From positions 5,067 through 69,066 of IMG/VR virus record IMGVR_UViG_3300044638_001843: 64,000 nucleotides of DNA, one strand, 5' to 3'. Shown one piece after another: positions 5,174 through 63,829 of this stretch. Source of the DNA: a virus. Both the position numbers and the translations under genes were made by a program. The notes beneath the pieces are model-generated. The model did not search any database and had not been told where the DNA came from. It was given only the letters and a program-made list of their open reading frames with translations. Each line of letters opens with the position of its first letter. The first letter of the stretch is position 1.

Positions 5174-5247
5174 AGAAGGGTGGCTGAAGTAGATAGAGCG
5201 CATGCCTTATAAGCGTGAATATGTGGGTGCAACTCCCGCCCCTTCTA
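5174..5247 (+). tRNA. tRNA-Ile (TAT), atypical T-loop
   Basis: Acceptor AGAAGGG/CCCTTCT + A; anticodon arm CATGC-CT TAT AA-GCGTG; T arm GTGGG-TGCAACT-CCCGC; no encoded CCA. Confidence 0.7.
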
Positions 5248-15352: not shown

Positions 15353-16957
15353 ATGAAATCCGAAAAGACCATAAAAGATAGGTGGCTTGTCTTACATGCT
15401 AAGAGAGACACCAAGTTAAACAAAGCTAGGGCTTGTTCGGCAATAACAGTTCCCTCTTTATTGCCATACCAGTCTATGTCTCAGCAGGATAATCTATTCC
15501 AGACTTATTCCTCTGTTCAATCCCGTGGAGTTACTTCCTTGGCTAGTAAAATCCTTAGTGTTCTTATACCCCTAAATGATACACCATTCTTTTCATTTGG
15601 GTTAAAAAATGGTAGAGAACCTAGCCCAGAGGTTGCTGAATATCTAGACAAGCTATCCTATCAGGTCTATCGGAAACTAATTTCAAACAACCTAAGAGAA
15701 GCTTCTTACCTTGCCATGCAACATTTAATTGTTGTTGGTGATGTTCTTATTATAATGGAGAACGACTTCTCTTATCGAGTTGTTAGATTAGATCAGTTTG
15801 TTATTCGTAGAGATGTTAACGGTGCTGTAAAAGAGTTTATTTACTTAGAGTTTATTTCACCAAGTAATGAAGAACCAGCTAGTGCATATGACTTTATGGC
15901 TGGCGAAGAACATCAAAGCGGATACAAGACAGTTTATATTCGTGTTTCACAAACAGAAGATAACAACTGGAAAGTAGAAAAAGAACTAGACGGAGAGATA
16001 ATTGATGTAGGTTATTATGATGTACTACCATATGTTATTCTTCGATGGTCAAGTGTAGCTGGTGAGGATTATGGTAGAGCCCATGTAGAAGATATCTATT
16101 CAGATATTAAAACACTAGAGGCTTACACAAGAGCTTTAATTCAAGGCATGGGTGCTGGCTCTACCTTTTTTATGGGTGTTGACCCAGCTGGTATTACAGA
16201 ACTAGATGACCTATCTGTAGCCGTTAACGGTCAATGGGTAGCTGCCCGTAAGAATGAGGTCTTTACTATATCTCCCGGTGACACCATCAATCCACAGTTA
16301 CAGGTTGGCAACGCAGCCGTAGAATCTATGCGTAAGGAGGTAGGGCAAGGCTTCCTACTACAAACCGCATCTATGCCTACGGGTGACAGAGTAACAGCCA
16401 CTGCCGTCCGTGCTGTTGGTAATGAATTGGAAACAATCCTAGGTGGTACATTCTCAGCTATTGCTAGAGACTTTATGGTTCCTGTAGTTAAGAGAACAAT
16501 CTATTTGATGTTGCAGAATAATGAGATTGATCCGGGAATGCGTGAACAGTTTGATGAAACAAACGGTATTCTTAACATTGAAATTTTAACTGGTCTTCAG
16601 TCTCTATCCAGAGAATCTGATCTGACTAAGCTATTACAGATGGGTGAGATGGTAAGAAACCTACCACCAGATGCGGCTAGTTCTTTCAAGTGGGAATCAT
16701 ACGCCAGAGCTTTAATTACCTCGCTTGGATTTGATCCTAGCAACTGGGTAAAGAGCGAAGAAGATATCCGTAAAGAAGAAATGGCAGCCGCTGACCGACA
16801 ACAGCAGATGGAAATGCAGAAGATGTATGCCCAGTCTGCTCTTAATACAGTTAGTGGCGCTGCTCAACAAGATCTTGTACAAAATGGTGGTAAGAATATT
16901 CCACCACAGTTTAGTGAGCAAGCTCTTAAAATTCTAGGTCCAAGCTTAGGAGTATAA
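15353..16957 (+). CDS. Portal (head-tail connector, T7 gp8-like)
   Basis: SRGVTSLASK, PFF, GEDYGRAHVE, RVTATAVR, ELETILGG motifs; 534 aa. Confidence 0.95.
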   Translation: MKSEKTIKDRWLVLHAKRDTKLNKARACSAITVPSLLPYQSMSQQDNLFQTYSSVQSRGVTSLASKILSVLIPLNDTPFFSFGLKNGREPSPEVAEYLDKLSYQVYRKLISNNLREASYLAMQHLIVVGDVLIIMENDFSYRVVRLDQFVIRRDVNGAVKEFIYLEFISPSNEEPASAYDFMAGEEHQSGYKTVYIRVSQTEDNNWKVEKELDGEIIDVGYYDVLPYVILRWSSVAGEDYGRAHVEDIYSDIKTLEAYTRALIQGMGAGSTFFMGVDPAGITELDDLSVAVNGQWVAARKNEVFTISPGDTINPQLQVGNAAVESMRKEVGQGFLLQTASMPTGDRVTATAVRAVGNELETILGGTFSAIARDFMVPVVKRTIYLMLQNNEIDPGMREQFDETNGILNIEILTGLQSLSRESDLTKLLQMGEMVRNLPPDAASSFKWESYARALITSLGFDPSNWVKSEEDIRKEEMAAADRQQQMEMQKMYAQSALNTVSGAAQQDLVQNGGKNIPPQFSEQALKILGPSLGV

Positions 16958-28194: not shown

Positions 28195-28231
28195 ATGCCT
28201 AGGGAGTCGAAAGATTCCCTAGGTATTTTTT
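28195..28231 (+). terminator. Intrinsic terminator after capsid gene (T-phi-like)
   Basis: ATGCCTAGGGAGTC-GAAA-GATTCCCTAGGTAT followed by a T run. Confidence 0.85.
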
Positions 28232-45979: not shown

Positions 45980-48900
45980 ATGGGCAAATGCAGCGAAGAG
46001 GTTTTAAACAAGATACGAGAAGAACTAAAGTCAAGTGGTGCAGAACCTGAAACAATTAATACTGTTGTTTCTTTATTTGAAAAGTCTGTTGAAACCGATG
46101 CATCTGCCGACTTGGTATCAAAAACCCTCACTAATTCTTTATTTACAACTTCAGATATTGAGAAGCTTAATAAACTAATTTCAAAGTTTAGAAGAGCTAA
46201 GGGTGATATAACTAAAGTTACTAATGACGATCTGTCTGAATTTACTTTCTTATGGTCTAAGTGGCAAGCTTACATGGAAGGTAAAGTACTTATTGCCGAG
46301 GGATTCAAAACAAAGGAAACTCTAGAACTAAAGAAAAAACTAAGAAAGCTAGAAAGTAAGTTCCTTAGTGAAGGTAAAATTAAAGAAGCAAGAACACTTA
46401 ATAGATTAATTAGAAAAATAGAAGCAACCGAAAAGCAGAATAGAAATGCTGGTAGATTTATTAGGAACATAGAGTTTGAAGGTAGACTAGAAAAAACTAA
46501 AGCTTTACTTAATGCTGTTAATGCGTCTTATGAATTTGAGGCTTCAAACAATGAGACAATTAAAAAACTAAACAATACTAGATTTGCTTTAGTTGGTGAG
46601 CTTCAAAGAGAAACAGACCCAGAAAAGAAAAAAGAAATTCAAAAAAAGATTGATGAGAATGTCAAAGAAACTACCACAAAAACAAATGAAATCTTATTAA
46701 GTAAGGCATTTAGAAAGCAACAGAAAGCAGACTCAACTGGTCAAATATCTCTATATGAAGCAGTTAAAGAACTTAGTTCTGAGATTGATAAGAACTCATC
46801 TACATACCGCCTTGCTCTAAATGAACTGATTGATTCTCGTAATACCCTAGAACATGATAAGCAATTGTTTGAATTAGCCAAACAGGGTATTCAGGTGCTT
46901 AATACAAGTAAGGCTTTGTTGGATGCTATTAGAAAAGAAAAGGGCGGCAAAGTTACTGTAGCAGAACTAAAAGCAGTAATCGGAGATTTGGGTGTTTCCA
47001 TTGATCAATTAATTATTGATACCCACAATAAAGTTAATCCAAAAGAAAAAGCAAAGTCTTTAAAGGGAAGTACTGAACTAGATAACAATACACTATCTTC
47101 TATCTTTAATACATTAGCTAATCTAGCAATAGATCAGGCTTTTTCAAATGGCATTGCTTTAGGTTTTGAGTTTTCACCAGAAGATCAAATGTTAGCAGAT
47201 AATCTAAAAGCAGCTAGTAATAACATGGATATTGAAAACGAAGACCAGGTAAATAACGATACTGTTATGCCAAAGGCTAGAACAGCCAGCAAAGCTAAGG
47301 AAGAAACCCTTAGTACTAGAGAACAAAAAATTAAAGAGTTTAAAGAAGGCACTGACTTTAAGAAGCTTTATGTAATGTTAAAGCAAGCCTTAGAGCGTGT
47401 AGAAACACTGAGAAAACTACCACAGTTCTCAGAGCATATATCAAGAGATATGGTTTTAGCAGCCCTAGGACCACAGTTACACCTACTAAATCCAGACATT
47501 TATTTTAGTAGTGCTGTTGTAACTGCAACATCTGTAGCACGACTAACAGCTCCGGCTCTATCTAGCTTGCCTGTACCGCCAGCATTAGAAAAAGCTTTTG
47601 CTAATTTAGGTATGGATCCAAGAGCAATTAAGGGTTTACCTGAAGTAGCAAACCCAGATGAATACGCAAGAAACTGGGATAGAGTTATTTCATTTGATAT
47701 TGAAACAAAGGGTGATGAGATCTTTATGATTTCTATTAGACACTCAGCAACAGAAGAAAGACTTGATCCTTCTATTGAACAGCTTGTTTCAAATCCAGCC
47801 AAAGGTTCTATTGGTAACTTTACTGCTTATTCAAAAGAAGATCTACTGCGATTCTTACGATCTTTAGAATTAATGCAAAATATGGGATGGAAGGTTGCTG
47901 GATTTAATAATGTTGGATTTGATTTAGCTTCTATAGCTAAATCTATTGGTACAGAAGAAGCATCAAATCTAGCCGCTCGGGTTGCTTTAAGATCATATGA
48001 TATGTACGCTTGGATTAAGATGCAATATGGAGCTACTGTTAATTTAGACAACCTTGCAACAGCAACACTTGGTCGAGGAAAGATTAAAGGCGTAACTGGC
48101 ACAAGTGTAGTAGATCTTTTACTTGCAGCAAAAACAGAAGAAGAAACTTCAAAGGCACTAGAGTATTCTAGAAACGACTCTGATTTAGTATTTGAGATTA
48201 TTGAAAACCTAAGATCAAACCCATCACGAAACCTTACTGTTAATGTAAACAATGTAGATAAGAGTACTGTAAATTTAAGTTTAAGTAATCCACTTCAAAC
48301 ATGGCAACTAGCTATTTTTCACAGTAATACAAATAGTAACTTTAATGGATTCTTTTTAGAATACAATGCAGCAGGAGTACAACCAGCAATAAATAACTTT
48401 GTTGGTGAATCTAGTAATGCTGAAAGAACATCTAGACTGCTATTTAATACAGAAGCAGTTAGAGATCAGTTGCTATTGCATATGTCTTTATCTTTAAGAG
48501 CAGATCCAGATACAGCTGTAGTTGGAGAAACTTTAATTAAAGAAGCCGAAAGACTTACTAAAAAAGAACAAGAAGTTCTTGTTACTCAGATGAAGTTAAT
48601 GAGAACACATAGGCAAGCTGGTATTGAAGCAAAGAAAGCTTTACTTGGTTCTGATGGAGAACCAAAGTTTATTCTTTCAATCATTGAAGGTGAACCAAAA
48701 TATATTGAAGCAACTACCAGTACAACAGCTGAGTCTCAGTATGAAGCAGCAGTAATTGAAGCATTTAATCAGTTTTACTTAGATATGGCAGGGGATAGAG
48801 TACCAGCCGATCAGATAGTTTCTCGGATGAATGAAAAGATTGTTGAGTATGGATTTAGAGAAAAGACTGGATCAGAAACCCAAGCAGACTACATTAAAGC

Positions 48901-58170: not shown

Positions 58171-58210
58171 AAAGCAACCAGAGAACTAATAATTCTCTGG
58201 TTGTTTTTTT
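58171..58210 (+). terminator. Intrinsic terminator after the giant gene
   Basis: AAAGCAACCAGAGAA-loop-TTCTCTGGTTGTTTTTTT. Confidence 0.8.
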
Positions 58211-58286
58211 CCCAGGTAGATTCCCTACCTATCCCTATCACTGGGGTTCAGTGAATCTAGGTCCTATAGACCAGAAAGATTAGGGG

Positions 58287-58430
58287 ATGCAAACCTACAA
58301 GTTTGAAATCCTGCATAGCACACGCGGACGGGTTACCGTTACAGTCAAGGCTCATAGCCTTGAGAAGGCGTGGATGCGCCTTTACGTCAAGCACACGCCA
58401 GTCCACATTGTTCGATGGTGGCAGTGCTGA
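58287..58430 (+). CDS. Small early protein (47 aa)
   Basis: MQTYKFEILHSTRGRVTVTVKAHSLEKAWMRLYVKHTPVHIVRWWQC; stop abuts the first hairpin repeat. Confidence 0.55.
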   Translation: MQTYKFEILHSTRGRVTVTVKAHSLEKAWMRLYVKHTPVHIVRWWQC

Positions 58431-58471
58431 GAAATTCCCCCAGGTTAATCCCTGGGGGATTTCTTTATGGG
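58431..58471 (+). promoter_or_regulatory. Hairpin + TTATGGG element, copy 1
   Basis: GAAATTCCCCCAGG-TTAATC-CCTGGGGGATTTC-TTTATGGG. Confidence 0.7.
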
Positions 58472-58535
58472 TAGCATATGCTGCCTCTGTTAGGCCCCTA
58501 CAGTCTTAGGGGTTGTCTTGCAAAGGAATAAGAAG

Positions 58536-58742
58536 ATGGATATTCTTATCACTCGATTCCTGACAAACGAGGAAACCGTTTTGTACTCAGTAGAAAATGA
58601 CGGTTACACCGTTCCCCGCGAGATGTTCGCTCTTTCCCCAAAGGAAAGCAATTTGTGGACGTGGAAGGAAGTTTGCCACTACGTTTGGTACTGGTCTCAC
58701 GAAACCAATGTCACTGTCACCGTCCGCTACAAGAAAGGGTAA
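58536..58742 (+). CDS. Small early hypothetical protein
   Basis: AAGGA upstream; MDILITRFLTNEETV... Confidence 0.6.
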   Translation: MDILITRFLTNEETVLYSVENDGYTVPREMFALSPKESNLWTWKEVCHYVWYWSHETNVTVTVRYKKG

Positions 58743-58780
58743 GTCGTTTTCGGGTAAGATGTGATTAATGGCTTGCCCGA

Positions 58781-58819
58781 AGCATCCCCCGGAGAAATCC
58801 GGGGGGTGTTTTTTATGGG
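58781..58819 (+). promoter_or_regulatory. Hairpin + TTATGGG element, copy 2
   Basis: AGCATCCCCCGGA-GAAA-TCCGGGGGGTGTT-TTTTATGGG. Confidence 0.7.
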
Positions 58820-58913
58820 TTGAATGTAACCCAAGCCCTACTGTTGGGCAAGCTCATGGCTAGAGCTATATAAGTCAAGCCCTAACTCCTTCTTATAGAG
58901 AGGAAACCACCCA

Positions 58914-60791
58914 ATGAACATTCCATTCTTGGGTAAGGGTGAGTATACCGTTCACGACCTGGTGACGCTCATCCAGCCGGATGCGGTCCTTGCGGGGATC
59001 GACCCGGCATCGTTCTCAGTTGTTGGCGGCATCATTGGTAAGATGCTGTCAACGGGAGCTTACAAGATGCACTGCGAGGTTGTTCGTGGTGGATCTCAGG
59101 TGTTCAAGGCTTGGACGCTTCGGCGGCAGGCTGAGGACATCCTGAAGCTCATGCCTGAGTGTCGCAGCTGGTCTAGCCACGCAAGTGGCATGGCCGCAAT
59201 GGACAAGGTTACCTGGGTGCGCGATGAGCGCATGTTCAACCTGGCCATTGATGCTGCCTGTCTGCTGGGCAAGAAGCCCTATGAGGTGGTTCACAACGGT
59301 CGTTCAAATACCGTGATTGAACCTGTGTTCCTCATGGAGTACTTGGCTAAGTGGCAGATCGAAAACTTGGCCAAGCTTCCTTCGGGAAGCGAGATCAAGT
59401 TCTGGCACTCGGCAGATCGTCGTGGCGGTCGCTTCTATGCGTACAACCGCGACGGACTGGTTTTGCCTACGATGTACGATGGAGATGTGTGCGCTCTCTA
59501 TCGGCTGGCAGAAGGCAACCCTGTCACCAAGGAAGACATTGAGCTGTGGTCTACCCTGGTCGAGAAGGAGTACGGTGTCACGCGGGAAGAGATGTGCCGC
59601 GTGGCAACTGATCGTGAGTTTGCTCTGGGTTTGTTTTCCAACCCAATCGGCAAGCTGAAGTCAGTTGGAAGTAAAAAGCGGAATGTGCTGCGGTTCATCC
59701 AAAACTGCTACCACATCAGTGACGCTCTTGCATCCGGCGTGTCTCATGGGCATATTGGATATGATGCCCATGCTCAGGGTCCGGTGGCTACCTCCTTGGC
59801 CATCGGTGGGAGCCGTACCTGTCACGATGTGATGATGGGTCGGAAGGTCTACGAAGGCATTACGGAGTGCCTTGGCATCGTTCCGTCGGAGGTTGAGTCG
59901 TTTGTTCGTTCCCGTGAGTGGGCAAAGAATGTTCTCACGGTGACGAACTACACCGGGCGTGTGTTGGGCCAGGTGTTCCTCTACGGGATGGGCGGAGAGC
60001 TGGAGGACGAGGATGGTTCTGTCCTCGCTCCGTTCAACCTTGCAAATGCTGTGATCAAGGTTGACAAGCTCCGCTCTGGTCTGGAGCTGATCAAGGACTG
60101 GCCCCAGTCCAAGATCAAGGAACTGGCAGCATCTGTTTCTGCCATGTCGGTGAACGCGGCCCTTCGCTACGACAGCAAGCTGTTCAAGTTTGGTGACCTG
60201 TGGTTGGCTCACCAGAAGGCGAAGGAGGAGGTGTTCTCATACACCTACGGTGGGATTACGTTCCCTCACTTCAAGATCGCACCCGCGCTCTCATGGTTCC
60301 CGGTTGATGAGGCTACCAAGATGCGGGATCTGCCTCAGATCTCCGTGTCCCTGCCTCATTCGGTGCTGGATCTGTGCAAGAAGAACGGGTGGCCTACGCG
60401 CTTCCAGCCGCGTATGGCTCCGTTCACCAAGGGCTTCACTGATGACAACGGGCCTGTTGTGCCGTGGTCAGACAGCGGAGAACCCAATCGGGTTGATACC
60501 CCGAACGGGTCCTTGGTGGCAGTTACCACTTGTCAGGATGGCAATGTCCTGACTAACACCATCAATGAGATGGGTGGACAGGTGGCGACCACGCGGCACG
60601 ATGCGATCACTGTTCGCATTGGTCCAGCCCTGAGAACGGTGCAGGAAGTGTACACTCGTCATATGTACCGCGAGTGTGTTGGCAACTACCGTCAGGTCCT
60701 TCGGGAAGAGTTGGGCAAGTTGTTCCCCAACATCACTGAGGATGTGTCGGAAGAGCAGTTTGTTCTTGCCGCCAAGAACATCTTCCGCTGA
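58914..60791 (+). CDS. Highly divergent T7-type single-subunit RNA polymerase (625 aa)
   Basis: FWHSADRRGGRFY; motif A IGYDAHAQG; motif B REWAKNVLTVTNYTG (R-x3-K-x7-Y); TCQDGNVL; motif C TRHDAI; canonical order; GAGGA RBS. Confidence 0.72.
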   Translation: MNIPFLGKGEYTVHDLVTLIQPDAVLAGIDPASFSVVGGIIGKMLSTGAYKMHCEVVRGGSQVFKAWTLRRQAEDILKLMPECRSWSSHASGMAAMDKVTWVRDERMFNLAIDAACLLGKKPYEVVHNGRSNTVIEPVFLMEYLAKWQIENLAKLPSGSEIKFWHSADRRGGRFYAYNRDGLVLPTMYDGDVCALYRLAEGNPVTKEDIELWSTLVEKEYGVTREEMCRVATDREFALGLFSNPIGKLKSVGSKKRNVLRFIQNCYHISDALASGVSHGHIGYDAHAQGPVATSLAIGGSRTCHDVMMGRKVYEGITECLGIVPSEVESFVRSREWAKNVLTVTNYTGRVLGQVFLYGMGGELEDEDGSVLAPFNLANAVIKVDKLRSGLELIKDWPQSKIKELAASVSAMSVNAALRYDSKLFKFGDLWLAHQKAKEEVFSYTYGGITFPHFKIAPALSWFPVDEATKMRDLPQISVSLPHSVLDLCKKNGWPTRFQPRMAPFTKGFTDDNGPVVPWSDSGEPNRVDTPNGSLVAVTTCQDGNVLTNTINEMGGQVATTRHDAITVRIGPALRTVQEVYTRHMYRECVGNYRQVLREELGKLFPNITEDVSEEQFVLAAKNIFR

Positions 60792-60805
60792 ACTCACCCG
60801 CAACT

Positions 60806-60843
60806 TCCCCCCTAGGTAATCCCTAGGGGGGATTTCTTATGGG
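60806..60843 (+). promoter_or_regulatory. Hairpin + TTATGGG element, copy 3
   Basis: TCCCCCCTAGG-TAATC-CCTAGGGGGGA-TTTCTTATGGG. Confidence 0.7.
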
Positions 60844-60867
60844 CATATTGCCCAGAAAGGTTTTGCC

Positions 60868-61176
60868 ATGTTAAAGAAACTGTGGAATCGGTTCCGTCAG
60901 CAAGACAAGTTGGATGCAACCAAGAAGGATCTGGAACTCGCAAATGATGAATTGCACCGGGTCGAGTCGCTGTGCTACATGCTTCACCACACTTTGCTTT
61001 ACTCAATTGCCTATCCTGAGTGCGAAGGCATTGATGACATGGTGGTGGCAGCAGATGGAAAGCTCGACAAGGCAAAGGAAGTGATTGCCTCTCACATTTC
61101 AGAGTGCATGAACTACAGCTCGTTCCATTTCGGGAATCCCCACACTGGTGATGGGTTCCCGCCAGATCACCTCTGA
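60868..61176 (+). CDS. Early hypothetical protein
   Basis: AAAGG upstream; 102 aa bounded by hairpin elements. Confidence 0.65.
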   Translation: MLKKLWNRFRQQDKLDATKKDLELANDELHRVESLCYMLHHTLLYSIAYPECEGIDDMVVAADGKLDKAKEVIASHISECMNYSSFHFGNPHTGDGFPPDHL

Positions 61177-61193
61177 CCCAAACCCGGGTCATT

Positions 61194-61231
61194 TCCCCCT
61201 AGGATAAAACCTAGGGGGATTTCTTTATGGG
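61194..61231 (+). promoter_or_regulatory. Hairpin + TTATGGG element, copy 4
   Basis: TCCCCCTAGG-ATAAAA-CCTAGGGGGA-TTTCTTTATGGG. Confidence 0.7.
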
Positions 61232-61288
61232 AAAGTTTATCTAGGTTTGTATCCCAATAACCTTAAACCTAGTATATGGAGATGTCAT

Positions 61289-61813
61289 ATGACAACTTCA
61301 CAGTTTGTGCTTGGCTCAGTCGAGTTCGTCCCTACCAAGGGTTCCGCCCCCATGTTCTTCAGCACGGGGGAGCACGCCTATCGGGTGTGGACCAACTCCA
61401 CCAGCTGGCGCGTGGACGTTCGGGGACACCGCACGAAGTTCACCCACCTGGACATCATCCAGATGGGGTTCGGTGTCAAGATCCACCAGGAGATGCAGAC
61501 CCGCTACGGAGCGGATCTGGACGGTTGGGTGTACCTCAGCAATGGGGTTACAATTAGCCGTGACCCTAGCGGGTCTACTCCGCCCTGGGTGGCCGAAGGC
61601 AAGTTGGTGCTTCGGTCGAGGTTCTTTCTGGCTCCGTGCCGGGAACGAAACCTGACTGCCTGCCTGCGAGAATGGGGTCAGACCCCCGCAGAAGCAGAGA
61701 GCTACTGGAACTCGGCTTGGAACAAGCGTGCCGTGGAACTGGAGTACCCGGCTCACCGCATCGTTCCCTCCAAGAACGGGCATCGCATGCCAGAATTCAC
61801 TGTTCTGGTCTGA
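61289..61813 (+). CDS. Early hypothetical protein
   Basis: GGAG RBS; MTTSQFVLGSVEFVP...; bounded by hairpin elements. Confidence 0.65.
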   Translation: MTTSQFVLGSVEFVPTKGSAPMFFSTGEHAYRVWTNSTSWRVDVRGHRTKFTHLDIIQMGFGVKIHQEMQTRYGADLDGWVYLSNGVTISRDPSGSTPPWVAEGKLVLRSRFFLAPCRERNLTACLREWGQTPAEAESYWNSAWNKRAVELEYPAHRIVPSKNGHRMPEFTVLV

Positions 61814-61828
61814 TGCTCCGTTCTCCCT

Positions 61829-61864
61829 ACCCCCTAGGTAATACCTGGGGGGTTTTCTATTTGG
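61829..61864 (+). promoter_or_regulatory. Hairpin element, copy 5 (variant tail)
   Basis: ACCCCCTAGG-TAATA-CCTGGGGGGT-TTTCTATTTGG. Confidence 0.6.
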
Positions 61865-61879
61865 TTATTATTACCCCCT

Positions 61880-62264: not shown

Positions 62265-62525
62265 ATGACGGATGCAGAACTGAAGGTCCGACAGGAGGCC
62301 CTGGCTTCCCTCGGAATCACCACCTCCGTGACTGAGCACTTCGCCAAGGCGGAAGCTCGCCAAGCTCGGCGCGAGGCCCTGTCGGAACAGGACAGGCTCA
62401 AGCTCAAGCTCAACGGCTTGGTTGGAGGAGTCATCTTGAATCCCAAGGCTACGGAGGCCACAATCTCCGCAGCTGTGGCCAAGGCGACGGTGATCCAGAA
62501 CCAACTGGCTGAACTGGAACAGTAA
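62265..62525 (+). CDS. Early hypothetical helical protein
   Basis: AAGGAGG RBS; MTDAELKVRQEALASLG... Confidence 0.75.
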   Translation: MTDAELKVRQEALASLGITTSVTEHFAKAEARQARREALSEQDRLKLKLNGLVGGVILNPKATEATISAAVAKATVIQNQLAELEQ

Positions 62526-62569
62526 ATCCAGATCCCCCCACCCCTGGGGAAACCTACGGGTGGCGATTT

Positions 62570-63265
62570 CTAGTACCCCAAACGGGGTATAACGGTGGCT
62601 GCAACCACCATAGAACCGCAAGCAACCTCTCCCAGGCGGTATATAAATAGGGGGACACATAATAACCGCTGGTTTCCTTGCAGGGAATACAGCTATGGAA
62701 AGCCTATGTCACAGGCAAGTACTTACGGTTAAGGTTATTGGCCTAGGTAGAGGATAACCTAGTTAAAACCTCACAAACTTCACGGCGGAGCCGTTGCAAC
62801 GGTGGCCGCAATAGGATACTGGGTAGGCCGCAACCTATCCAGTAAACGCCCCGGCAAGGGTGTAGCAGGAGTTGTCTACCCTGTGGTAATATTATTAGCA
62901 CGATCCGTTTAGACTCGGATCATAGGAATAATGGTAATCCAGGACTTATTCCAACGCAAACGACTGGGTACTCGACTATGCGAGTATAAATAGAAATTAG
63001 GCATAGTGCGGCTACGGTTTTGTTGCGCAACAAACTGTAGCGTCTTGGTTTACTAACAGTCCCACAAAGCTGGGTAGGCTATGTCAGGTAAAGTGAACAG
63101 TCCTGACCGCTTGTTCAAACTGTTACCCTACTATAGTAGGCTGACCCCGATATAAAGCAAATAAGGGGTAGTAATAACCTAGGCTAAGGACCTAACCCAC
63201 CCTGGCTTAGAGCAAGCTAATAGGGTTACTAGGCAGTCTATGGGGAAACCTGTAGACTGTCTTTC
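62570..63265 (+). ncRNA. Candidate large structured non-coding RNA (about 700 nt)
   Basis: No credible + strand ORF; more than a dozen consecutive hairpins, many with G-U pairs and GCAA-containing loops; ends in terminator-like hairpin. Confidence 0.6.
63231..63264 (+). terminator. Terminator-like hairpin closing the structured tract
   Basis: AGGCAGTCTATGGG-GAAA-CCTGTAGACTGTCT-TT; short U tract. Confidence 0.55.
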
Positions 63266-63713: not shown

Positions 63714-63746
63714 GGGTAGCCTAGGTTAATCCCTAGGCTACCTCTT
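63714..63746 (+). promoter_or_regulatory. Hairpin related to the early repeat
   Basis: GGTAGCCTAGG-TTAATC-CCTAGGCTACC; same TTAATC loop as copy 1. Confidence 0.55.
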
Positions 63747-63829
63747 TAACCTAGCATATAGCTAGGGCTTTAAACCTAGGTATTATTATTACTATAGTAT
63801 TAATATTACCTAGGTATACCTAGGAGTAT

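Follow-up and report, generated by a model that had tools for sequence, protein, structure and literature searches.

Hairpin-leader units as probable boundaries of exchangeable gene cassettes in a GC-rich island of a T7-like podovirus

Gene cassettes bounded by stem-loops are known from T4-type phages. Arbiol et al. 2010 (PMC2839356) and Comeau et al. 2014 (PMC4122927) describe PeSLs (promoter-early stem-loops) as conserved terminator/promoter motifs whose G/C-run stem-loops flank ORFans, and they mediate modular shuffling. PeSL cassettes of T4-like phages are the nearest described system to the locus reported here, and the literature that we covered, which excludes subscription journals, held no account of such units in T7-like phages. 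We analyzed a 64,000-nt window of viral DNA, bases 5067‒69066 of the 69,066-bp IMG/VR record IMGVR_UViG_3300044638_001843, and focused on five hairpin units that separate small genes near its right end. Hereafter, coordinates are window positions unless marked as genome, W denotes the locus of the window, L-numbers denote loci of related phages, and X-numbers denote public sequencing runs.

Judged from its sequence, the phage is an uncultured T7-like podovirus and not an N4-like one. Its genes all have the same coding direction and include an 812-aa T7-type RNA polymerase (RNAP; PF00940, E-value 1.7e-83), a set for replication (primase-helicase, family-A DNA polymerase, exonuclease, and ribonucleotide reductase), and a structural set (portal, scaffold, capsid, tail tube, nozzle, fibre, and terminase). 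Downstream of the structural genes lie open reading frames (ORFs) of 259, 1452, 918, and 4035 aa, none with a family; their position makes a role as internal virion or ejection proteins probable. The best matches of the terminase and portal among 50,697 GenBank phage records are just 30‒38% identical, and a nucleotide search of 57500‒64000 against the same records gave no match. The giant 4035-aa ORF (45980‒58087, + strand) is followed by a GC-rich island at about 58.1‒62.6 kb (58100‒62600), where the G+C content is 0.48‒0.56 versus 0.33‒0.44 elsewhere. This jump in composition is present in every relative fetched, even in those with proteins only 32‒38% identical. The conserved genes of the island encode proteins of 625 aa (hereafter RNAP2), 174 aa, and 86 aa; the small genes between the hairpin units vary from relative to relative. 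The label "early," which the original prediction gave to the island genes, is an assumption.

Five C-run/G-run hairpins, each followed by a T tract, lie in the same orientation on the + strand of the island. Hairpins 1‒4 have perfect stems of 9 bp (58436‒58459, loop TTAATC), 8 bp (58786‒58805, loop GAAA), 11 bp (60806‒60832, loop TAATC), and 10 bp (61194‒61219, loop ATAAAA), while the fifth (61829‒61853) has 11 paired positions but only if G-T pairs are allowed. The original prediction had placed the last three correctly and the first two (58431 and 58781) 5 nt before their stems; the loops that it called A-rich are A/T-rich. The tails are TTTCTTTATGGG, GTGTTTTTTATGGG, TTTCTTATGGG, and TTTCTTTATGGG for hairpins 1‒4 and TTTTCTATTTGG for the fifth, so that the predicted T(T/C)TTATGGG holds in that TTATGGG ends the T tract in four of the five. 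As had also been noted, the hairpins begin shortly beyond the stop codons of the preceding ORFs (by 5, 43, 14, 17, and 15 nt in order; Table 1).

The hairpins are far beyond chance. When a perfect unit was required to have a stem of 8 bp or more containing 6 or more G/C, with T at 5 or more of the following 10 positions, four sites were found on the + strand of 58204‒62600, against a mean of 0.003 and a maximum of 1 when the island was simulated 300 times with a first-order Markov model. The - strand of the island and both strands of window positions 1‒58000 contained none. The units also form the two top repeat families of the window (D1 and D2). TTATGGG alone is not enriched (10 observed versus 9.84 expected), and its other six copies are all within ORFs. 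Predicted RNA folds, computed on stretches that take in the following leader hairpin as well, are distinct for units 1‒3 (-31.7, -30.0, and -31.9 kcal/mol; z -4.98, -6.11, and -4.84) and less so for units 4 and 5 (-24.9 and -20.6 kcal/mol; z -2.15 and -1.89). On the transcribed strand, a stable GC-rich stem-loop is thus joined directly to a U-rich tract, as in intrinsic terminators, and the minus-strand flanks are not T-rich. The terminator half of the original prediction therefore fits the sequence, with a strong GC stem and a U tract in one orientation just after stop codons.

The order within a unit continues from the T tract to an invariant TAT, then GG(G), and then a second, smaller hairpin that begins at the GG (GGGTAGCATATGCTGCC, GGGTTGAATGTAACCC, and GGGCATATTGCCC are examples). 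This leader hairpin ends directly ahead of the ribosome-binding site (AGAAAGG), which precedes the ATG. When the 69-kb genome is scanned with a position weight matrix (PWM) that is anchored at the GG and spans -15 to +3, the five island units alone score 12 or more (Table 1), the next-best sites reaching 11.1, 10.2, and 9.3. With a shorter matrix (-9 to +3), eight sites reach the lowest training score, including the four TATGG units; the others lie at 16165 and 30953 (+ strand) and at 46629 and 26302 (- strand). Two other roles for the joint were rejected. The ATG inside TATGG has no ribosome-binding site, and the ORFs that it would open at the four window units have 2, 5, 8, and 11 codons and are unalike by eye. 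A sigma-70 promoter inside the unit was likewise discarded: a consensus scan lists no promoter-like site at any unit, the position 17 bp ahead of the -10-like hexamers is taken up by G-run and stem, and the leaders of 27‒31 nt have no space for a bacterial promoter.

To define what is conserved, we compared 14 loci, the window and 13 others, leaving out the duplicates L005, L023, L033, and L037. They contain 38 distinct units of hairpin and T tail, 30 of which have a C-run 5' arm, and TATGG occurs within 16 nt in 24 of these 30. The six without it end in TTTCTATTAGG (terminal units of L004 and L034), TTTACATTGGG or TTTCTTTTATAACC (L030), or TTTCAGTTAGG (L028 and L035 groups). When the 24 TATGG units are aligned at the GG, T-3, A-2, T-1, G+1, G+2, G-13, and G-14 are invariant (24/24); conservation in register covers positions -5 to +3 and -12 to -15, and -6 to -11 vary with the length of the T tract in these related units. 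Across units, stems have 8‒12 bp and loops 3‒7 nt, and the stem ends 7 nt before the GG in two units, 8 nt in three, 9 in ten, 10 in one, 11 in seven, and 12 in one. The predicted minimum-free-energy leader hairpin begins at the first G in 22 of the 24, four of these being weak 4-bp long-range pairings. The distant relatives L028, L036, and L040 keep the double-hairpin layout but have TTTC, TTTT, or AAAG between the hairpins; the conservation of the motif among relatives is confirmed for most C-run units, and it fails for the TAT in the distant lineages. An exact 18-nt motif scan of viral contigs returned 23 loci, with only two contigs from relatives. The other 21 loci are single matches, mostly unrelated G-run hairpin terminators ending in TTTATGGG, since the pattern itself forced that result.

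The units are better conserved than the genes that they separate. Between L030 and W, the units are 82‒93% identical, while the giant ORF has 65‒73% nucleotide identity, the C-terminus of the giant protein 40% identity, and RNAP2 32% amino acid identity. The 11-bp stem after the RNAP2 gene (TCCCCCCTAGG) is identical in W, L003, L004, L030, L031, L032, and L034, and the loop and T tract that follow differ among them.

Comparison of the loci shows that related phages acquire, lose, and re-pair cassettes exactly at the joints. The number of C-run units ahead of the RNAP2 gene is two in W, three in L003, two in L031 (with other content), one in L004, five in L030, and six in L034. The 102-aa gene between units 3 and 4 is found only in W and is absent from L003, L004, L031, L032, and L034, where the unit 3 hairpin abuts the leader of the 174-aa gene. 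The same joint (60836 to 61225) occurs in X1 and X2 contigs, with 7 letters fitting both sides, and these contigs have further joints at units (58255 to 61193, 58531 to 61194, 58811 to 58464, and 61231 to 58285). Each hairpin type accompanies the gene upstream of it, and each leader type the gene downstream; the CCCCCGGA hairpin with a GAAA loop, for instance, precedes the RNAP2 leader in W and the GGGTAGCATATGCTACC leader in L030. This pattern of inheritance places the crossovers inside the shared G-run/T-run/TATGG patch. No integrase family was detected among the 50 ORFs scanned with Pfam. As for the sequencing runs, six RNA-library runs were found, all as assembled contigs, and four were compared (X1, X2, X5, and X6). 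Such contigs cannot show the starts, ends, or strand of RNA, and their uncovered parts carry no meaning. X1 and X2 probably represent DNA. From the RNA runs X5 and X6, short contigs fall on parts of the island and on 62840‒63265, which is no proof of transcription.

We consider that each unit is probably a composite element that marks the border between small gene cassettes, within an accessory island rich in GC. In the sequences compared, their anatomy, common orientation, restriction to the island, and exchange of cassettes at the joints can be read directly. The 3' module of the upstream cassette, a perfect 8‒11-bp C-run/G-run stem closed by a short A/T-rich loop and followed by a U-rich tract, would act in vivo as a one-directional intrinsic terminator or attenuator and protect the 3' end of the message. 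After the invariant TAT|GG in the middle, the 5' module of the next cassette would be the small hairpin from the GG to the ribosome-binding site and start codon. The patch shared by all joints may serve as the homology for recombination. An RNA 5' end at the GG could arise from re-initiation by a phage single-subunit RNAP, from endonucleolytic processing, or from neither.

Several observations weigh against cassette boundaries that act as terminators and nothing more. The invariant TAT|GG and the conservation of whole stems exceed the needs of a generic terminator, as the original prediction had said of the ATGGG beyond the T tract, and the identical TCCCCCCTAGG stem follows RNAP2 genes that are just 32‒62% identical. 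The TTTC, TTTT, or AAAG between the hairpins of the distant relatives implies that termination is not the whole function family-wide. If the terminators are efficient, cassettes with leaders of 27‒31 nt (e.g., 60841‒60867) would be left promoterless, so the units must be either leaky or also promoters. Moreover, the 24 units are not independent because many are related by descent or gene conversion, and the RNA-library evidence on the units consists of assembled contigs only.

Whether a unit could also start transcription depends on the polymerases of the phage. RNAP2 has no Pfam or PHROG match, phmmer and profile searches against PDB sequences gave chance-level matches only, and tblastn against the GenBank phage records found no match. 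Among 1.84 billion representatives, it has nine matches, six of them full-length at 32‒38% identity, and a word-indexed homologue search, profile query included, returned two clusters only. A structure model was made by AlphaFold2 (AF2) from a 10-sequence alignment, with a predicted local distance difference test (pLDDT) score of 83.7 and a predicted template-modelling (pTM) score of 0.82; a 3-sequence alignment gave a pLDDT of only 30.5. The best Foldseek matches of the model are mitochondrial and T7 RNAPs (E-value 2.7e-9). Against T7 RNAP 8dh4_M (VIA), 442 residues are aligned with a Z score of 19.4 and a root-mean-square deviation of 4.6, while family-A DNA polymerases score lower (Z 13). 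In the RNAP2 alignment, Lys338, Tyr346, and His562-Asp563 are invariant and Asp284 is present in at least 90% of the sequences. From their spacing, we take Lys338/Tyr346, His562-Asp563, and Asp284 to be motifs B, C, and A of T7 RNAP, respectively. Since motif A lies about 250 residues closer to the N-terminus than in T7, the N-terminal promoter-handling region seems to be much reduced, as in N4 RNAPII. The model thus indicates that RNAP2 is, by its fold, a very divergent single-subunit RNAP, and together with the T7-type enzyme the phage would have two single-subunit RNAP genes. Alignment of the RNAP2 family with hhalign to the T7-like RNAP of the phage and to the giant ORF found nothing.

The first alternative is the other half of the original prediction, a dual terminator/promoter at which a phage single-subunit RNAP starts at the GGG and makes each cassette its own transcription unit. 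We regard this as possible but rather unlikely. The G-run of the 3' arm, the T tract, and the TAT would form an 18-nt duplex promoter (-15 to +3) for either RNAP2 or the 812-aa T7-like enzyme. Such a start is conceivable because TAT|GG is invariant and the 625-aa ORF has a single-subunit RNAP fold. It would account for the invariance in all 24 TATGG units with G-13 and G-14 in register, for leader hairpins that begin at the GG of TAT|GG, and for leaders that have neither space for a bacterial promoter nor a sigma-70-like site. T7-type transcripts typically run from an AT-rich stretch through a GG start to a 5' stem-loop, and the units have the same layout. PWM matches are confined to the five island units, beside a gene with an RNAP fold. 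A precedent is N4 RNAPII, described in PMC4496689 as a minimal enzyme of 673 aa with a minimal AT-rich promoter (-7 to +2).

However, the units of L030 are nearly those of W, yet the two RNAP2 proteins are only 32% identical, while T7-type promoter-polymerase pairs are usually specific; LUZ100, for instance, has a 17-bp promoter motif unlike that of T7, according to PMC10134795. By PWM, no copy of the unit stands ahead of any backbone gene in the 69-kb genome, and the upstream regions share no motif apart from the ribosome-binding site. The distance from the stem to the GG varies from 7 to 12 nt. Furthermore, the first cassette follows a terminator without TAT (stem CAACCAGAGAA, seven T, CCCA, GG), the distant relatives also have no TAT, and in L034 the left-edge terminator runs straight into the ribosome-binding site, so that read-through must occur there.

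A wider form of the dual function, which we hold still more tentatively, is that the island is a self-contained transcription module in which RNAP2 starts at the GG of every unit. With comparable doubt, the T-rich, easily melted stretch beside a perfect palindrome may then be a compact promoter whose sequence overlaps the terminator ahead of it. A joint that doubles as a promoter would offer synthetic biology a very compact terminator-promoter part together with an orthogonal minimal polymerase, and it would also be an addition to phage transcription strategies. If the module is self-contained, a cassette placed between two units would be insulated and expressed at once, and a T7-like phage would have a second, private polymerase-promoter system in a three-polymerase programme like that of N4.

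Processing of a read-through polycistronic RNA by a host or phage endonuclease in the U-rich linker is the second alternative, and we consider it improbable. Upstream messages would keep a 3' hairpin and downstream messages a 5' hairpin, in analogy to the RNase III sites of T7 early genes. RNase E-type enzymes prefer A/U-rich single strands, which the linker matches. The double hairpin and its short single-stranded linker are kept in all lineages, including those without a U tract, and the layout of the distant relatives, without T tract and TAT, keeps this explanation alive; it is also compatible with the read-through required at least in L034. On the other hand, cleavage does not explain the invariant GG except through the stability of the leader stem. 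RNase III sites themselves were dropped because the stems are too short for this enzyme.

The two remaining explanations are very improbable. Following the analogy to N4 in the original prediction, extruded palindromes might be N4-type hairpin promoters, here recognized by a virion-packaged RNAP domain of the 4035-aa protein, since the palindromes are perfect, the giant ORF precedes the island, and an inverted repeat adjoins the possible start site; but the N4 virion-RNAP promoters described in PMC4496689 are conserved from -17 to +1 and have inverted repeats on both sides of a GC-rich heptamer whose centre is at -11, bases -9 to -11 in the loop, and a stem no longer than 7 bp that meets single-stranded DNA at -5/-4, which the stems, loops, start distances, and lack of a fixed register here do not match. 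No sign of a virion RNAP was seen either: searches with the giant ORF against Pfam, PHROG, and PDB sequences found nothing, its profile comparison with RNAP2 showed no similarity, a search of the ESM Atlas with its residues 1000‒2999 gave no usable match, and the genome is T7-like. Site-specific recombination at integron attC-like sites by a dedicated recombinase, which would suit one ORF and one palindromic site per cassette in variable arrays, is hardly credible, since no integrase or recombinase family was found in the 50 scanned ORFs, the palindromes, unlike the imperfect ones of attC sites, are perfect and carry a T tract, and the crossovers fall in shared sequence as homologous exchange predicts.

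Table 1 Coordinates of features in the GC-rich island and its flanks.
Feature	Position	Strand	Description	PWM score	Leader hairpin
Left-edge terminator	58175..58210	+	After 4035-aa ORF; stem CAACCAGAGAA, loop 7 nt, seven T		
Cassette gene, 47 aa	58287..58430	+	No Pfam or PHROG match		
Unit 1	58436..58471	+	Hairpin TCCCCCAGG/CCTGGGGGA + TTTCTTTAT + GGG	29.8	58469-58486
Cassette gene, 68 aa	58536..58742	+	No known family (Pfam, PHROG)		
Unit 2	58786..58819	+	Hairpin CCCCCGGA/TCCGGGGG (GAAA loop) + GTGTTTTTTAT + GGG	28.3	58817-58832
RNAP2, 625 aa	58914..60791	+	Predicted single-subunit RNA polymerase fold; conserved core gene of the island		
Unit 3	60806..60843	+	Hairpin TCCCCCCTAGG/CCTAGGGGGGA + TTTCTTAT + GGG	23.6	60841-60853
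Cassette gene, 102 aa	60868..61176	+	No known family (Pfam, PHROG)		
Unit 4	61194..61231	+	Hairpin TCCCCCTAGG/CCTAGGGGGA + TTTCTTTAT + GGG	29.8	
Island gene, 174 aa, conserved	61289..61813	+	No known family (Pfam, PHROG)		
Unit 5, last of the island	61829..61866	+	Imperfect hairpin + TTTTCTATTTGG	16.6	
Degenerate irregular hairpin, weak	62529..62572	+	GATTTCTAG; after 86-aa gene (62265-62525)		
Double hairpin outside the GC island	63715..63766	+	GGTAGCCTAGG stem, TCTTTAA, then CCTAGCATATAGCTAGG hairpin		

The left boundary of the cassette island is marked by the left-edge terminator (-26.7 kcal/mol, z -7.42), which is followed by CCCA and a leader hairpin starting with GG. Its 11-bp stem and loop recur in W, L003, L004, L030 (12-bp stem), L031, and L034. 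About 90 nt ahead of it, a single-copy 25-nt element overlaps the stop codon of the 4035-aa ORF (58086‒58110, + strand); its core is kept in W, L003, L004, L028, L030, and L036, with a weaker copy in L040, and roles as a small RNA, promoter, or packaging signal are conceivable. A further hairpin with a T tract and a CCTAGG core, which is common to several island hairpins, lies directly after the capsid gene (28198‒28235, + strand), where T7-like phages usually have their late terminator.

Neither Pfam nor PHROG assigns a family to the giant ORF or to any of the seven ORFs in the island and its flanks. By eye only, an ORF alike in size and sequence to the 47-aa gene follows a unit in L003 and L030, although BLASTP paired none in this comparison at an E-value of 1e-5 or less; a copy with a different leader is found in L031/L032. 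The 3' end of the 68-aa gene together with its hairpin is 93% identical to L030 4298‒4387, and the 174-aa protein has homologues of 97% identity in L003 and 51% in L004. Ahead of the RNAP2 gene, a TTGGGC-N17-TATATA block (58844‒58872) is kept in W, L003, L031, L004, and L034; it is a weak consensus match that the promoter scan does not list, and we mention it as a lead only.

Unit 5, whose counterparts in L004 and L034 end in TTTCTATTAGG, is followed by about 400 nt without a gene. Within this region, seven GTACC[CT] copies occur in 235 nt of non-coding DNA (61888‒62121, + strand), and the relatives carry GTACC/ACCC-rich arrays at the matching position; these repeats might be sites where a protein binds, for instance at an origin or close to an end of the genome. 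Related hairpins had also been predicted near 62540 and 63714. The former is weak and irregular (62529‒62556, -19.5 kcal/mol, z -1.77), while the latter is borne out by a strong 11-bp GGTAGCCTAGG stem at 63715‒63742 (-31.8 kcal/mol, z -5.16), and a variant copy lies at genome 509‒538. Near-palindromic CCTAG[TC]ATAT leaders were found at four intergenic sites, 61268, 63750, genome 546, and genome 4774 (the last two being window -4521 and -293), one of them directly ahead of the T7-like RNAP gene. They are similar to the GGTAGCATATGCTACC leader hairpin found in the cassettes, and they may function as operators or leaders.

Further to the right, a Pistol self-cleaving ribozyme (RF02679; 43 bits versus a gathering score of 34.5, E-value 1.5e-5) was identified at 62970‒63022 (+ strand) in a stretch of about 900 nt free of ORFs. 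Its 41-nt core is kept in L004 and L028, and the X1 and X2 contigs diverge on either side of it. The viral record itself is a permuted, essentially complete genome because its two ends overlap imperfectly. Genome 1‒794 matches 68206‒69066 (window 63140‒64000) with near-identical flanks around a strongly diverged small gene, as though the assembler had failed to close the circle because it met two alleles of a variable gene. Four tRNA genes (Ile-TAT, Arg-TCT, Leu-TAA, and Lys-TTT) lie at 5174‒5247 and 7336‒7567 (+ strand).

Compared with known systems, the units share with intrinsic terminators the GC-rich stem, the U tract, the position just after a stop codon, and the coding strand, and this phage has intrinsic terminators of its own near 28198 after the capsid gene and after the giant ORF. 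Generic terminators, however, need no conserved stem, no TAT|GG, and no abutting leader hairpin. The AT-rich stretch that immediately precedes a possible G start, together with an 18-nt block (-15 to +3) kept in register apart from the variable positions -6 to -11, recalls T7-type promoters as the cited papers describe them, but the units are absent ahead of the replication and structural genes, and the same units serve lineages with very different RNAP2 proteins. The likeness to PeSLs, as described in PMC2839356 and PMC4122927, is closer. In both systems, a composite intergenic motif with a G/C-run stem-loop terminator or attenuator lies among the ORFans of a hyperplastic region, insertions, deletions, and replacements between relatives break at the motif, as was found here, and homologous exchange within the motif is the proposed mechanism. 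The differences are that PeSLs carry a strong sigma-70-type -35/-10 promoter and the present units none, and that these units belong to a T7-like podovirus and have a T tract and an invariant TAT|GG after the stem-loop. The principle of the mobile regulatory cassette, described in T4-like myoviruses, would thereby extend to a lineage of T7-like podoviruses, with a joint that has no bacterial promoter and stands beside a previously undescribed RNA polymerase gene. Such a short conserved stop/start joint would let phages as diverged as these, with RNAP2 at 32% and the C-terminus of the giant protein at 40% identity, trade accessory genes.

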